A program made the position numbers and the translations under genes. The notes under the pieces were generated by a model that was given only the letters and a program-made list of their open reading frames with translations, ran no database searches and was not told the origin of the DNA. From Sulfolobales archaeon (lineage in GTDB: Archaea > Thermoproteota > Thermoprotei_A > Sulfolobales > AG1): 64,000 nt of DNA. The stretch is taken from positions 512,001 to 576,000 of the forward strand of contig JAWBYA010000001.1 in the NCBI GenBank assembly GCA_038867615.1, in the 5' to 3' direction. Below, in pieces: positions 21,987 through 26,082 of this stretch (its first letter is position 1; each line of letters starts with the position of its first letter).

Positions 21987-23633
21987 TTGAAATACCCCTG
22001 GAGACCTGGTTATGATCTAACAATCGATAGAATGATCAAGACGGTGTTGCATTATAACCCTGGAGGCGAGATAGTATATAGAACTAGATCAGGTGTTGAG
22101 AGGTATAGCTATTCAAAAGCCTATGAGAGGATGAACTCCCTCGCAGCAGCACTCTCAAGCATGGGTGTTAAGAGAGGGGATAGGGTTGCTACCCTCGATT
22201 GGAATACGCACTGGCATTACGAAGCATATTTCGCTATACCAATGATGGGTGCTGTTCTACATCCAGTTAATGTTAGGCTGGCTCCCAGCGAGATTGAGTA
22301 TGTTATGAACCATGCGGAGGATAGGGTTGCTATAGTGCACTCAGACTTCCTCAAGCTCTTGGAGGTTGTGGCACCGAGGGTTAAGAGTCTAGAGCATGTT
22401 ATTGTAGTCGATGCTGATAGCGCTCCTGAGAAGCTGGGGAATGCTAGGGTATATCTATACGAGGATCTCGTGAGATCCCATAGGGAGAGCTATGAGTGGC
22501 CAGAGATCTCTGAGAACGAGGTTGCTGGTATAGGGTATACTAGTGGGACTACAGGCCTGCCCAAGGGAGCGTTCTTCACACACAGGCAGATAGTTATACA
22601 CGCGATGTCTGTAGCCCTCTTCACATCCGCATCCCCCCTAATAGGGTTGAACGCATCCTCAACACTCCTCCACATAGTCCCGATGTTCCATGTATTCTCG
22701 TGGGGCTTGCCCTATGTTGCAACCCTCCTAGGGGCTAGGCAGGTCTATCCCAACAGGCTTATCCCCTCCGTCTTGTTAGAACTCATAGCTAGCGAGAGGG
22801 TTACCCACACAGCAGGGGTTCCCACGATACTCTACATGCTTCTAACAGACCCGTCGAGCCCCAAATACGATCTAAAGGGTCTGAGGTTCATAAACGGGGG
22901 CTCAGCAATGCCAGAGGGTTTGGCGGAGCTTGCTAGAAAGAGGGGTATAGAGGTTATAGTGGGCTATGGCCTGACAGAAACAGCCCCGGTTCTAACAATA
23001 GCAAGCCCCCCGCCCGGTCTGCTTAAAAGCCCCGAGCTGGGTAAACTACTCCTGAGAACCGGATGGCCAGTACCCTTAGTAGAGATAAGGGTTGTTGATC
23101 CTGGAGGAAAGCCTGTGCCGAGGGATGGGAGGACTATGGGTGAGATTGTTGTGAGAGCCCCCTGGCTAACCCCTGAATATTATAGAGATCCTGCCAAGAC
23201 TGAGGAGCTCTGGAGGGGAGGATGGTTGCATACAGGCGATATAGCAGTGTGGTTCGAGGACGGCTCTGTATTGATAATGGATAGGGATAAGGATGTGGTT
23301 AAAAGCGGAGGCGAGTGGATAAGCAGTGTGAGGCTTGAGGATGCTATAAGCACACACCCAGGCGTCTCCCAAGTCGCGGTTATAGCTGTGAGGAGTGAGA
23401 AGTGGGGTGAGAGACCCGCAGCCCTCATAGTCCCGAAACCAGAGTGGAGGGGTAAGATAACGCTTGAGGAGGTGAGGAGGCATCTCGAGGATAACTATGT
23501 TGCCAAGGGACTGATACCGAGGTGGTGGCTTCCAGACATAGTTATAGAGGTTGAGAGTCTTCCCCTAACAAGTGTAGGTAAGATTGCTAAGAGGGTGCTT
23601 AGAGAGCAGTACAAAGATCTAGTAGTTAGTTAG
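21987..23633 (+). CDS. Medium/long-chain fatty acid-CoA ligase (AlkK/DmdB-like)
   Basis: YTSGTTGLPKG, GYGLTET, WLHTGD, DRDKDVVKSGGEWISS, PLTSVGK. Confidence 0.92.
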   Translation: MKYPWRPGYDLTIDRMIKTVLHYNPGGEIVYRTRSGVERYSYSKAYERMNSLAAALSSMGVKRGDRVATLDWNTHWHYEAYFAIPMMGAVLHPVNVRLAPSEIEYVMNHAEDRVAIVHSDFLKLLEVVAPRVKSLEHVIVVDADSAPEKLGNARVYLYEDLVRSHRESYEWPEISENEVAGIGYTSGTTGLPKGAFFTHRQIVIHAMSVALFTSASPLIGLNASSTLLHIVPMFHVFSWGLPYVATLLGARQVYPNRLIPSVLLELIASERVTHTAGVPTILYMLLTDPSSPKYDLKGLRFINGGSAMPEGLAELARKRGIEVIVGYGLTETAPVLTIASPPPGLLKSPELGKLLLRTGWPVPLVEIRVVDPGGKPVPRDGRTMGEIVVRAPWLTPEYYRDPAKTEELWRGGWLHTGDIAVWFEDGSVLIMDRDKDVVKSGGEWISSVRLEDAISTHPGVSQVAVIAVRSEKWGERPAALIVPKPEWRGKITLEEVRRHLEDNYVAKGLIPRWWLPDIVIEVESLPLTSVGKIAKRVLREQYKDLVVS

Positions 23634-23938
23634 AGAACATAGGGTTAAGGCATAACATCTCCCCAGCGGAGATATGTGGGATCACGATAGCAAGGTTCCG
23701 AGGTGGTGCTAGAAGCTAAGAATCCCGGCTTAATGCTGCATTCCCACGATCTCCCTACATCTCAGGATCTTTTTCACTTTTTCCTTTCCAGCTGTAGGAG
23801 CGTGTTTAAAGATCTCTCCATATATTGGATAGCATGGATACTGTTCTCCTTACTATCGGCTCTTTTCTCTCTACATATCTTCCCGCTATGTTTATATGCG
23901 TCCTTAAGCCTTTTACTTTCAATTCTATAGTAGATCGA

Positions 23939-24125
23939 CTTGTGGGGTTATGGATTGCTGTTGAGCCTAGCGGCATGGGGCTTCCATCTACTGAGAGATC
24001 ATCCCCTGGATGGCTTGGAGCGATGCTCCCATCACCATCCAGAGTCAATATTGAGATCAAATCATCACCAAAAACCATTCCAATCAAGGCTTACAAATCT
24101 TCTGTATCGGTAAGAAAACAGCCCT
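23939..24125 (-). mobile_element. Diverged copy B of IS110-like non-autonomous element with structured RNA
   Basis: Begins AGGGCTGTTTTCTT like copy A; TTTGTAAGCCTTGA promoter-like box; aligns with 25525-25675 with compensatory stem changes. Right boundary not defined. Confidence 0.6.
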
Positions 24126-24512
24126 ATTTCTTAGCCTCAATACTCCTCGCCTCAAAGCCTAGGTATTTATCGATCATTTTGGAGAGTGTCTCCTGGAGAT
24201 CGTTATCAGCATGGCCAAGAGTTCTGCAGAATGCTACAAGACCGCTTAGCCTTATGGTCTCTATCCTAGCCTCCTCAACAAGCTGTGAGAGCCTGAACCT
24301 GAGAGAAGCCTCCCTAGATCTTAGCTCGAGAAGCCTTCTCAAAAGATCTACGCATTCCTCTCGATACAAGATCTCGCCCTCCCCTGAGCCTCATAGATCC
24401 TCCTAAGATCCTCCTCAACCTCCCTAACAGCCCTCTCAAGAGCTTCAATATTCTCCAAAGTAACCCTCAAAAGATCCTCAAGACCATTACTATCAATACA
24501 CACATCATTCAT
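24124..24512 (-). pseudogene. Uncharacterised coiled-coil protein (~130 aa) split by a frameshift, or two coupled small ORFs; downstream of the fluoride riboswitch
   Basis: ORFs 24348-24530 and 24124-24369 overlap. Adding one G near 24390 (TAT GAG GGC TCA) gives a continuous helical protein MNDVCID...RRIYE-GSGEGEILYREECVDLL...EAKK. Confidence 0.6.
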
Positions 24513-24532
24513 AGGCGCCCCCCACACCATAA

Positions 24533-24603
24533 ACAGGCGTCATCAGCCCATCACAACTCAGGGCGGTTTGGGGCCCCCAGGCCCCGGGAGGACGCCATCT
24601 CCC
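24533..24603 (-). ncRNA. Fluoride riboswitch (crcB motif)
   Basis: Minus strand reads GGGAGATGGCGTCCTCCC-GGGGCCTGGGGGCCCC-AAACCGCC-CTGAGTTGTGATG-GGCTGATGACGCCTG. It has the P1 stem GGGAG/CTCCC with the GATGG motif, the AAACCGC core, the GCTGATGAC core, and the pseudoknot GGCGTC/GACGCC. Confidence 0.9.
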
Positions 24604-24640
24604 AGCCGCGTCGAGCGGCAATAGCTATTACTCTTGAGGG

Positions 24641-24648
24641 CTTATATA
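24641..24648 (-). promoter_or_regulatory. TATA box for the riboswitch transcript
   Basis: TATATAAG on the minus strand about 40 nt upstream of the aptamer, with a small GCCGC/GCGGC hairpin in between. Confidence 0.55.
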
Positions 24649-25244
24649 GATACCCAGTTAAGTTGTTATAAAAACTAGATGTTTTGAAGGGTTCTCCTTG
24701 GTTAGTGTTTGTTCCTGGTTGTTTGTTGTCTCTTTTCTATATCTAGGGTTTCTATATGATTTTGTAGGACTGCTTGGTGAGAGACGTGCTGCTATGGTGA
24801 AGAGTGGAAATGCTGGAGAGAATCGGCTCTGTCTAGAGGAATGGTCTTTTGACAAGCTCTCTTGTTGATTCTATTAGCCATACTCCTTTTTCTTCGGCTT
24901 TCTTGGGATCGCCTATGTATTTTAGGCAATAGAGCACCATGATGACATTGCCTGTAAATTTCTCTGGCCATTTCTTTCTAGCCCTCTCAACCCTCTTTAC
25001 AAGTCTGTCAATGAGTTTCTCGCTAGCTCTTGTCTCAGCCTCGCCAACGATCACGATACCATTATGTGAGCCATATATATCGAACTCGTATCTCTTATCA
25101 AGCACAATGGATCCGAGGCTTATCTCCAAACCCTTCTCTCTTAAAAACCCCTCGACAACGATCCTAGCTTCCTCCTCGATAGAGATTGTTATGTTCTCAA
25201 GGATCCTCTCAACCCTACTAAGTCTCCTATCAATCCTGGAGACA

Positions 25245-25345
25245 CTTGCTTTCAAAGCGGAAACATCGCTCTTCAAGGTAGAAACGTCGGATTTTAGGGC
25301 TGGAACATCAGTCTTTAAAGTGGATACATCGGATTTCAGCAACCC
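25245..25345 (-). repeat. Imperfect 21-nt tandem coding repeats (LKSDVST heptads, about 5 copies)
   Basis: LKSDVST LKTDVPA LKSDVST LKSDVSA LKASVSR. Confidence 0.8.
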
Positions 25346-25432
25346 TATATCGTCTCTAATTCTTAATATATCGGTTTTTATCGCAACCAAATAGCCCTCC
25401 AGGGTTGAGAGCCTCTTATCAACTTGTTTGAA

Positions 25433-25781
25433 CCGTTTGTCCCTGGATGTTCATTCCAGTCATTTTATATTTGTTCATGGTCACATCCGGGGACTTCCAC
25501 CTCTACCCGCAGGATCAGAGAGATCCTGTGGGGTCATGGGCTGCCGTCGAGCCGAACGGCACGCGGCTCCCATCTAGCTTGTGCCCCAGACAGCTTGGAG
25601 CGCTGCTCCCATCGCCACCCGAGACCTGTGTGGGGAGACCCACACCGGGGCCAATATCTTTCAAGGCTTATAAATATCCAGGTGTTGGCGGGAGAGCGGC
25701 TTTCGGGCATGTCGCTCCCAATACTTATAAAAATTTCCAAAGCCTATTAATCCTCACTATGCATATCAAAAAGAGAACAGC
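25433..25781 (-). mobile_element. ~347-bp non-autonomous element (IS110/IS1111-like) carrying a TATA box and a multi-hairpin RNA, copy A
   Basis: Clean in-frame interruption of the host gene with no clear TSD. Weak terminal inverted similarity (13/22). Internal TTTATAAG box followed by hairpins. Degenerate MNKYKMTGMNI-(S)RDK resembling the IS110 N-terminal GIDVSKD motif. Confidence 0.7.
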
Positions 25782-26082
25782 CCTCTCTAACATAGTCGGC
25801 CAGTGCTTTGATCGCTTCAGCAATCATTCTAAGATCCTCTGACCTTGCCTCTTCAAGAGCCCTCTTAACGGCTTTCTCAACGATCTCCTCGAGGATTTTC
25901 AGATCTACGGACATCAGCGTACCAATAGTTAGTGCTTCTCTAAAACTTATATAAGCCGGGCAAGAAGGATCGCATTGAATCTATAGATCTTGGGGCTTGG
26001 GATGCGTTACTGGTTTTTGGTAACGCGCCCTGCTGAGGGCTTGCTGTGTTGCTGAAAAATATATTGGTTCACGTGATCGGTA

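Follow-up and report, generated by a model that had tools for sequence, protein, structure and literature searches.

A fluoride riboswitch upstream of a conserved pair of small proteins, probably the remainder of a three-gene operon, in a Sulfolobales archaeon

Introduction

What does a fluoride riboswitch govern in an archaeon in which no fluoride exporter is detected? The question is raised by a stretch of 64,000 nucleotides (nt), hereafter the window, from contig JAWBYA010000001.1 (positions 512,001 to 576,000) of a Sulfolobales archaeon whose genome, G000, comprises 2,221,398 bases in 28 contigs and is 94.44% complete. On the minus strand of the window, a fluoride riboswitch precedes two short overlapping open reading frames (ORFs), ORF1 and ORF2. 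CrcB and CLC-F were recognized as fluoride exporters through their position behind fluoride riboswitches.

Both the riboswitch class and its occurrence in archaea are already known. The genes associated with it in the available part of a 2024 review (PMC11139923) are exporters, Na+/H+ antiporters, pyrophosphatase, HAD phosphatases, enolase, and formate hydrogen lyase, the last of which had already been noted as an association of the crcB motif in a passage of Weinberg et al. 2010 (PMC2864571). According to a passage of PMC8241225, the fluoride riboswitch of Thermococcus kodakarensis is the only natural archaeal riboswitch determined experimentally. Set against the targets of the class (RF01734) in that part of the review, the window switch precedes no Fluc/CrcB, CLC-F, antiporter, enolase, pyrophosphatase, or other listed class. 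The word "uncharacterized" is absent from the review, and its riboswitch passages name neither the ORF1/ORF2 family nor DUF6062, a protein family that belongs to the history of this locus; the passages of PMC2864571 and PMC8241225 make no mention of the ORF1/ORF2 family either. "DUF6062" was not found in the searchable literature, and nothing specific on Sulfolobales fluoride-riboswitch contexts was found in the literature searched, supplements excluded; the additional files of Weinberg et al. 2010 may list archaeal contexts.

Comparison with related genomes suggests an answer. A functional-looking fluoride riboswitch probably heads what was once a three-gene operon, and ORF1 and ORF2 would serve as an accessory or adaptor factor in an exporter-independent response to fluoride stress. 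We favor this reading because the pair recurs in other fluoride-riboswitch operons.

Results

The riboswitch and the undetected exporter

A preliminary description of this DNA, made from its letters, had recognized a near-textbook crcB aptamer, and its P1 helix, pseudoknot, conserved cores, extra hairpin, and TATA-like box were all found (Table 1). When the window was scanned against 4227 Rfam families (cmscan), the Fluoride family RF01734 gave the sole match at the gathering threshold. With 46.9 bits against a cutoff of 34, an E-value of 7.5e-10, and coverage of model positions 1–64 of 64, the match marks a genuine riboswitch, and it is the single Fluoride match in the entire genome (E 6.2e-12 at genome scale). 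P1, P2, a pseudoknot joining the loop of P1 to the 3' tail, and the conserved GAUGG, AAACCGCC, and GGCUGAUGAC motifs of the class are present, as are both conserved cores, AAACCGCC and GGGCUGAUGAC. The pseudoknot strands GGCGUC and GACGCC are complementary (duplex energy −9.6 kcal/mol), and no noncanonical pairs are flagged in the cmscan alignment. The window RNA thus shares with its class the full model match, P1, P2, pseudoknot complementarity, cores, and location in the 5'-untranslated region. The extra hairpin is, in our alignment, common to the archaeal copies and not peculiar to the window copy: all five other archaeal aptamers aligned (L004, L013, L014, L016, and L029) carry an insertion of 11–15 nt at the same site.

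The aptamer lies on the same strand as the genes downstream of it, and 24 nt separate the end of its core from the AUG at 24512. Judging from the TATA-like box, the transcript start would fall near 24620. The 22 nt downstream of CTATATAAG (24633–24612) are the same in the window and in two related metagenome contigs, L028 and L029, and none of the 67 positions of the aptamer core differs between the window and either contig.

The earlier statement that the window holds no exporter can be widened to the genome. Profiles for CRCB (PF02537) and Voltage_CLC (PF00654) have no match in G000, an absence that an incomplete assembly leaves unproven; as controls, the two profiles were positive in 11 and 12 of 14 genomes, respectively. 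In the family to which G000 belongs, none of 13 genomes has CrcB, and of 41 relatives, G000 being counted among them, 4 have it. Because CrcB is rare in the order, its absence here is best seen as a lineage trait and not as a local loss. No crcB or CLC gene follows the ORF1/ORF2 homologues in any locus examined, and the idea that these homologues merely open a crcB operon as its first gene did not hold up.

Recurrence of the pair near fluoride riboswitches

An order-wide sample of 151 genomes was searched, the members of which are kin, so that counts overstate independence. The riboswitch occurs in 15 of them (16 instances), ORF2 in 24, and both in 7. In six of these seven genomes, ORF2 lies 0.2–6.7 kb downstream of the riboswitch on the same strand; in the seventh, G073, it lies 12.6 kb upstream of a riboswitch controlling a MutS-domain-V (MutS_V) protein.

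The gene orders fall into several arrangements. In L004, from a distant Thermoprotei metagenome-assembled genome (MAG) with an ORF2 that is 40% identical, a riboswitch of 53.5 bits is followed by ORF1, ORF2, and a DUF6062 gene. In G145, from another family of the order, 124 nt separate the riboswitch from ORF1-ORF2 and there is no DUF6062 gene within 4.5 kb, which indicates that the pair can stand alone behind the switch. Sulfolobaceae-type genomes have the riboswitch in front of an operon of six genes, among them those for NuoH-, NuoD-, and NuoB-type and two Proton_antipo_M-type proteins, and ORF1-ORF2 is found at the tail of such a hydrogenlyase-like operon in five genomes (G035, G153, G093, G044, and G045). 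The riboswitch of G050 (L053/L064) is followed by an 84-amino acid (aa) Proton_antipo_M remnant and then directly by an ORF2 homologue, with no ORF1, an arrangement suggesting that the hydrogenlyase-like complex was lost by deletion from between riboswitch and ORF2. Three riboswitches in the order directly precede MutS_V proteins of ~495 aa (L043, L049, and L054), and in G109 (L066, 3195–6852) two MutS_V genes are immediately preceded, on their own strand, by a fused ORF1-ORF2 gene of 154 aa, with no riboswitch. By gene order, then, the ORF1/ORF2 pair is associated with three gene sets tied to the fluoride riboswitch, namely DUF6062, the hydrogenlyase-like complex, and MutS_V. Since genome counts are not independent, we reckon with about four independent juxtapositions of the pair with a fluoride riboswitch.

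The riboswitch-led operons that resemble formate hydrogenlyase and complex I share the riboswitch class with the window and, in some relatives, carry ORF1-ORF2 at their end. They differ from the window in that its switch directly precedes ORF1; G000 has only ordinary complex-I homologues, elsewhere and at 24–36% identity.

The lost third gene

Contigs L028 and L029 are 88–95% identical to the window over this region and retain the intact arrangement: a riboswitch (47.6 bits), ORF1, ORF2, and then a 263-aa ORF that overlaps the end of ORF2 and contains two CPxC...CxxH (Cys3His) modules. Its homologue in L004 matches DUF6062 (PF19538) at 7e-19, and in a profile of 13 archaeal DUF6062 members the Cys and His columns are invariant. 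Membership was assigned on a Pfam match above 27 bits together with two CPxC...CxxH modules; the intact alleles have both, the window does not, and DUF6062 has no match in G000. L028, L029, and L004 thus place an archaeal DUF6062 gene behind a fluoride riboswitch, preceded by the ORF1/ORF2 pair. The protein is predicted to be all-helical (predicted local distance difference test, pLDDT, 80.3; predicted template modeling score, pTM, 0.73). Its model has no Foldseek match in the PDB at E ≤ 0.001 and a best Z of 4.7 in a wide VIA-align search, and PDB sequence searches with its profile returned only matches of E ≥ 0.0096.

In the window, positions 506–1128 of L029 (623 nt, the 5' part of the DUF6062 gene) are replaced by window positions 24127–23914. 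Homology to L029 resumes at 23913, and ORF2 is shortened by two codons: its TAG stop (24126–24124) comes from the inserted repeat, and in the intact allele a TGA two codons further on closes the frame. The truncated allele is also present in L027 (99.8% identical) and in a 4099-nt contig of run X10 that is ~95% identical and covers 23500–24784 without a joint (55 letters differ, 21 gaps); because both carry it, the truncation is not an assembly artefact. The preliminary description had proposed that an exporter gene was cut away by an IS110-like element starting at the stop codon. Comparison with L028 and L029 bears out the loss of a downstream gene exactly there, but the gene was DUF6062, not an exporter. 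An IS110-like insertion sequence is itself ruled out: the element is 212 nt long, has no transposase ORF of the DEDD type, and belongs to a set of ~30 short non-coding copies.

There are 29 other copies of the 212-nt repeat in G000 at E ≤ 1e-8, 73–85% identical (for example, C1:232909–233123, C5:93965–94145, and C2:202573–202776). Aligned copies have common termini, with GGGCTGTTTTCTT at one end and a complete repeat of the clustered regularly interspaced short palindromic repeats (CRISPR) type at the other. The same CRISPR repeat forms an array of 122 repeats on this contig (C1:626879–634758), and 22 further sites with one or two repeats are scattered over the genome. Derivation of the element from the leader of the CRISPR array was considered and rejected, the two being not homologous (local alignment score 45, shuffled maximum 34). 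The only ORF of at least 60 aa across the element (23806–24087) matches no Pfam family. A hairpin, CUGGAUGG...CCAUCCAG, is conserved among the copies and shows compensatory changes. If the element is transcribed, one may speculate that it could be cut by Cas6-type processing, which would tag the flanking RNA.

We therefore envisage, because the intact alleles have this order, an ancestral operon that would have consisted of the riboswitch with its own promoter, ORF1, ORF2, and the gene of the two-module, all-helical DUF6062 protein. Replacement of most of the DUF6062 gene by the repeat element would have left the switch governing the coiled-coil pair alone.

Cassettes in two related genomes are also altered. 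G003, of the same genus (L025, 1399–1998), keeps DUF6062 from about residue 72, and riboswitch, ORF1, and ORF2 are missing. G010 (L024, 999–2125) has one-base frame breaks in ORF2 and DUF6062, possibly MAG assembly errors. In the riboswitch-less leader of G010, CCGCTGATAATAGC (L024, 2215–2195, minus strand) resembles the aptamer sequence GGGCTGATGACGCC and may be the decayed 3' half of a riboswitch; the alignment is unconvincing, and the leader as a whole is not alignable with the riboswitch.

ORF1 and ORF2 as two coupled cistrons

The preliminary description had taken the ORF pair to extend to 24530 and had suggested a joined protein of ~130 aa. A one-base difference in L029 puts the ATG equivalent to 24530 out of frame and keeps the ATG equivalent to 24512, so that the start of ORF1 is corrected to 24512. 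ORF2 follows in the −1 frame with an overlap of 22 nt. Neither ORF belongs to a Pfam or NCBIfam family at cutoff, and no paralogue of either was found in G000. Among 5.8 billion clustered proteins, ORF2 has five homologues of 76–97 aa (17 candidates scored), and its profile retrieved 41 representatives at E ≤ 1e-3, 21 of them at ≤ 1e-10, from 1.84 billion proteins. The window pair bears the family signature, SREASL...EEA..ETIRLSG...C...KY in ORF2 and ...DL..IY..Q....C in an overlapping ORF1 upstream. ORF1 homologues lie directly upstream of ORF2 homologues in L004, L005, L007, L013, L015, L019, L022, L024, L028–L031, L034, L060, L061, L065, and L068.

Could the pair instead be one gene read by a programmed −1 frameshift, or the frameshifted pseudogene of a ~130-aa protein? 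The −1 relation and the 22-nt overlap are conserved in the window, L029, L024, and L015, there is no ORF2 start near the conserved N-terminus in L004, and other lineages have in-frame ORF1-ORF2 fusions of 149–156 aa. One such fusion is P0025, whose cluster members are named from Acidilobus spp.; its N-terminus aligns with the ORF1 profile (hhalign 91%, E 1e-6), and P0020 does so less closely (hhalign 47%, E 2e-4); in L066 and L067 the profiles of ORF1 and ORF2 both match one open frame. The fused forms match no Pfam family, one subthreshold match aside. Against a single frameshifted gene, ORF2 has its own start (TTG, ATG, or GTG) in seven of nine lineages (window, L029, L024, L015, L019, L013, and L030; none was identified in L034), L030 and L034 show a +1 relation of the two frames, and no slippery heptamer of the form X XXY YYZ was seen by eye in the overlaps of the lineages compared. 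The hallmarks of programmed frameshifting, a slippery heptamer and the lack of an independent downstream start, are thus not found, and we regard both versions of this explanation as highly improbable. Because ORF2 mostly has its own start, the frame relation varies, and no slippery heptamer is seen, the comparison indicates that ORF1 and ORF2 are two conserved, translationally coupled cistrons and not one broken gene; the joined protein finds no support in the window genome. Coupling of ORF2 translation to that of ORF1 would proceed through the conserved overlap.

A predicted heterodimer

The predicted complex of ORF1 and ORF2 is a heterodimer whose chains wind into a parallel coiled coil, flanked at either end by a cysteine pair. 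Three prediction runs gave interface scores (ipSAE) of 0.78, 0.78, and 0.79, compared with 0.00 for the best of three controls; the partner pLDDT is 83, and the runs share at least 93% of contacts. Of 80 solved complexes, 58 attain the mark used for such predictions, as do 2 of 110 mismatched pairs; this calibration is only rough here, as the prediction used its own alignments. In the predicted register, ORF1 residues 25, 32, and 39 lie opposite ORF2 residues 23, 30, and 37, and the interface includes ORF1 residues 4–6 and 49–50 and ORF2 residues 5–7 and 47–48. Cys5 of ORF1 and Cys6 of ORF2 are present together in nine lineages and missing together in three (L034, L019, and L030), and Cys49 of ORF1 and Cys48 of ORF2 are jointly missing in L004 only. 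This covariation fits two interchain disulfides or shared metal sites.

The pair is reminiscent of heterodimeric leucine zippers of the Fos/Jun type, which likewise combine a short acidic and a short basic helix for which, in our case, parallel pairing is predicted. It differs from them in having no recognized basic DNA-binding region and in carrying conserved cysteine pairs at both ends. There is also no sequence relationship: PDB sequence searches with the ORF1 and ORF2 profiles gave only matches of E ≥ 0.0096, to generic coiled coils of the GCN4 type. RelE, at E 0.3, is among the weak PDB matches of the ORF1, ORF2, and DUF6062 profiles.

Such a zipper-like interface raises the possibility that the heterodimer acts as a regulator: a coiled coil that would bind DNA, RNA, or protein and pass the riboswitch signal to unlinked genes. 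A relay of this kind would account for the survival of the pair behind the only riboswitch of a genome with no exporter detected; its proximity to three unrelated riboswitch-linked gene sets, the small acidic and basic helices, and a weak, subthreshold match of ORF1 to the GapR DNA-binding family (E 0.024, 14.7 bits against a cutoff of 22.6) point the same way. No DNA-binding domain is found at cutoff, however, and the weak matches are generic coiled coils. We consider a regulator of unlinked genes very unlikely.

A model of the switch

The leader can be folded in two ways (RNAfold). In one of them, GGCGUCCUCC (24596–24587), which comprises the pseudoknot 5' strand and the P1 3' strand, pairs with GGGGGGCGCC of the expression platform, and ACGCC (24540–24536) pairs with GGUGU (24528–24524), the likely ribosome-binding motif. 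This alternative fold is the minimum-energy structure for the window and L028 at 37 and 75 °C and for L029 at 75 °C. Position 24518, a G in the window, is an A in L028 and L029, giving an A-U instead of a G-U pair. At 37 °C, the alternative fold has −56.5 kcal/mol, compared with −47.8 for the aptamer-constrained fold plus approximately −9.6 for the pseudoknot duplex, and such near equality is as expected for a switch.

On the basis of these minimum-energy folds, we predict an ON switch. In the absence of fluoride, GGCGUCCUCC would pair with GGGGGGCGCC just 5' of the start codon (24512), and ACGCC, the 3' strand of the pseudoknot, would mask the GGUG ribosome-binding motif, such that initiation is blocked. 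Binding of a Mg-fluoride complex would allow P1 and the pseudoknot to form and thereby free the initiation region. Control at the level of transcription may be a further option.

Continued function or relic

Is the shortened operon still in use? Several observations weigh against the functional reading. Among the ORF2-bearing genomes, 17 of 24 have no riboswitch, so the pair is not strictly a member of a fluoride regulon, and 7 of 11 Sulfolobaceae-type genomes with the riboswitch have no ORF2 within 10 kb downstream. ORF1-ORF2-DUF6062 cassettes without a riboswitch occur in the window's own family (G001, G010, and G012). The cassette damage in G003 and G010, together with the loss of DUF6062 here, argues for dispensability. 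The dN/dS ratio (nonsynonymous to synonymous substitution rates) of ORF1 is ~1–1.5 in comparison with L028 and L029, few substitutions being involved. Finally, only three nearly identical sequences stand behind the expression-platform model, and the sequestration fold is not reproduced in L004 or G145, where the platforms differ.

Taken together, some of these points could mean that the loss of DUF6062 left the riboswitch and both small ORFs without a function and that these, too, are now being lost. DUF6062 is down to ~35 codons, the cassette is damaged in G003 (L025) and G010 (L024) as well, ORF1 has a dN/dS near 1, and none of the 13 other genomes of the family carries the riboswitch. A relaxed search (E ≤ 10) near cassettes L005–L009 and L017–L025 found no riboswitch in those flanks, the contig of L005 ending at ORF1. 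Other observations speak against a relic. The aptamer core is unchanged relative to relatives that are ~5% diverged, both ORFs are intact, and ORF2 has a dN/dS of ~0.2 relative to L028 and L029 (against these two, the 165 positions of ORF1 show 7 and 10 differences and the 242 of ORF2 show 12 and 11, respectively). The truncated allele has persisted, as its presence in the diverged strain of the X10 contig indicates, and in G145 the pair directly follows a switch with no DUF6062 nearby. We judge decay to a functionless remnant unlikely. Given the unchanged core, the constraint on ORF2, and the persistence of the truncated allele, the window switch and its pair are probably still in function.

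Features of the locus

The positions of all features are collected in Table 1. Just upstream of the riboswitch promoter, a 185-aa ORF (24833–25390, minus strand) begins with near-repeats (…LKSDVSTLK…); it has weak coiled-coil Pfam matches only (LPP at 5.9e-05, below cutoff), and its C-terminal half has no family. Further upstream, a diverged copy of the repeat family supplies the last ~11 codons of a 55-aa ORF (25747–25914); the 11-residue tail is also encoded at other copies of the element.

Table 1. Positions of the features of the riboswitch locus in the window
Feature	Position	Strand	Remarks
TATA-like box CTATATAAG	24649–24641	−	~30 nt upstream of aptamer model start; putative promoter
Fluoride riboswitch aptamer (crcB motif, RF01734)	24527–24611	−	covariance-model match
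P1 helix	GGGAG 24603–24599 / CUCCC 24590–24586	−	
Pseudoknot strands	GGCGU(C) 24596–24591 and (G)ACGCC 24541–24536	−	
GC-rich 16-nt hairpin	24585–24570	−	between P1 and AAACCGCC; insertion relative to Rfam model
P2 helix	24564–24561 / 24549–24546	−	
Expression platform	24513–24535	−	GGUG Shine-Dalgarno-like motif 24528–24525 and GGGGGGCGCC 24523–24514
ORF1	24348–24512	−	54 aa; acidic helical protein; Cys5 and Cys49
ORF2	24124–24369	−	81 aa; TTG start; invariant ETIRL core; Cys6 and Cys48
212-nt non-coding repeat	23916–24127	−	starts (A)TAGGGCTGTTTTCTT; ends with full CRISPR repeat 23940–23916
DUF6062 3' remnant	23806–23913	−	last ~35 codons and stop; L029 residues 213–248, 78% identity (tblastn)
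Second, diverged copy of repeat family	25435–25780	−	absent from L028

Discussion

The preliminary description had ventured that the protein downstream of the switch may be an undescribed fluoride-response factor. On comparative evidence, that proposal survives in part: a conserved family without annotation is found in fluoride-riboswitch operons of several independent archaeal lineages, and its role in the fluoride response is argued from that company.

A more far-reaching possibility, which we put forward tentatively and consider doubtful as it stands, is that ORF1 and ORF2, with DUF6062 where it is intact, represent an undescribed, exporter-free system of fluoride tolerance or signaling in those Thermoprotei that show no Fluc/CrcB and no CLC in searches. 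In the window strain, the heterodimer alone might then be the working fluoride-induced factor, perhaps as a relay or adaptor with a further role for the hydrogenlyase-like complex and MutS-like proteins that follow riboswitches of this class in relatives.

Riboswitch regulons are a reliable guide to unrecognized biology, and here the fluoride riboswitch points to a tiny two-protein family without annotation and to DUF6062. The window is also a record of natural decay, in which a repeat element with a CRISPR repeat of its own has damaged a fluoride-riboswitch operon. ORF1, ORF2, and DUF6062 are three small, easily expressed proteins for testing. If they do act in fluoride stress, one would have to ask by what means fluoride is tolerated in hot-spring archaea that have no known exporter.

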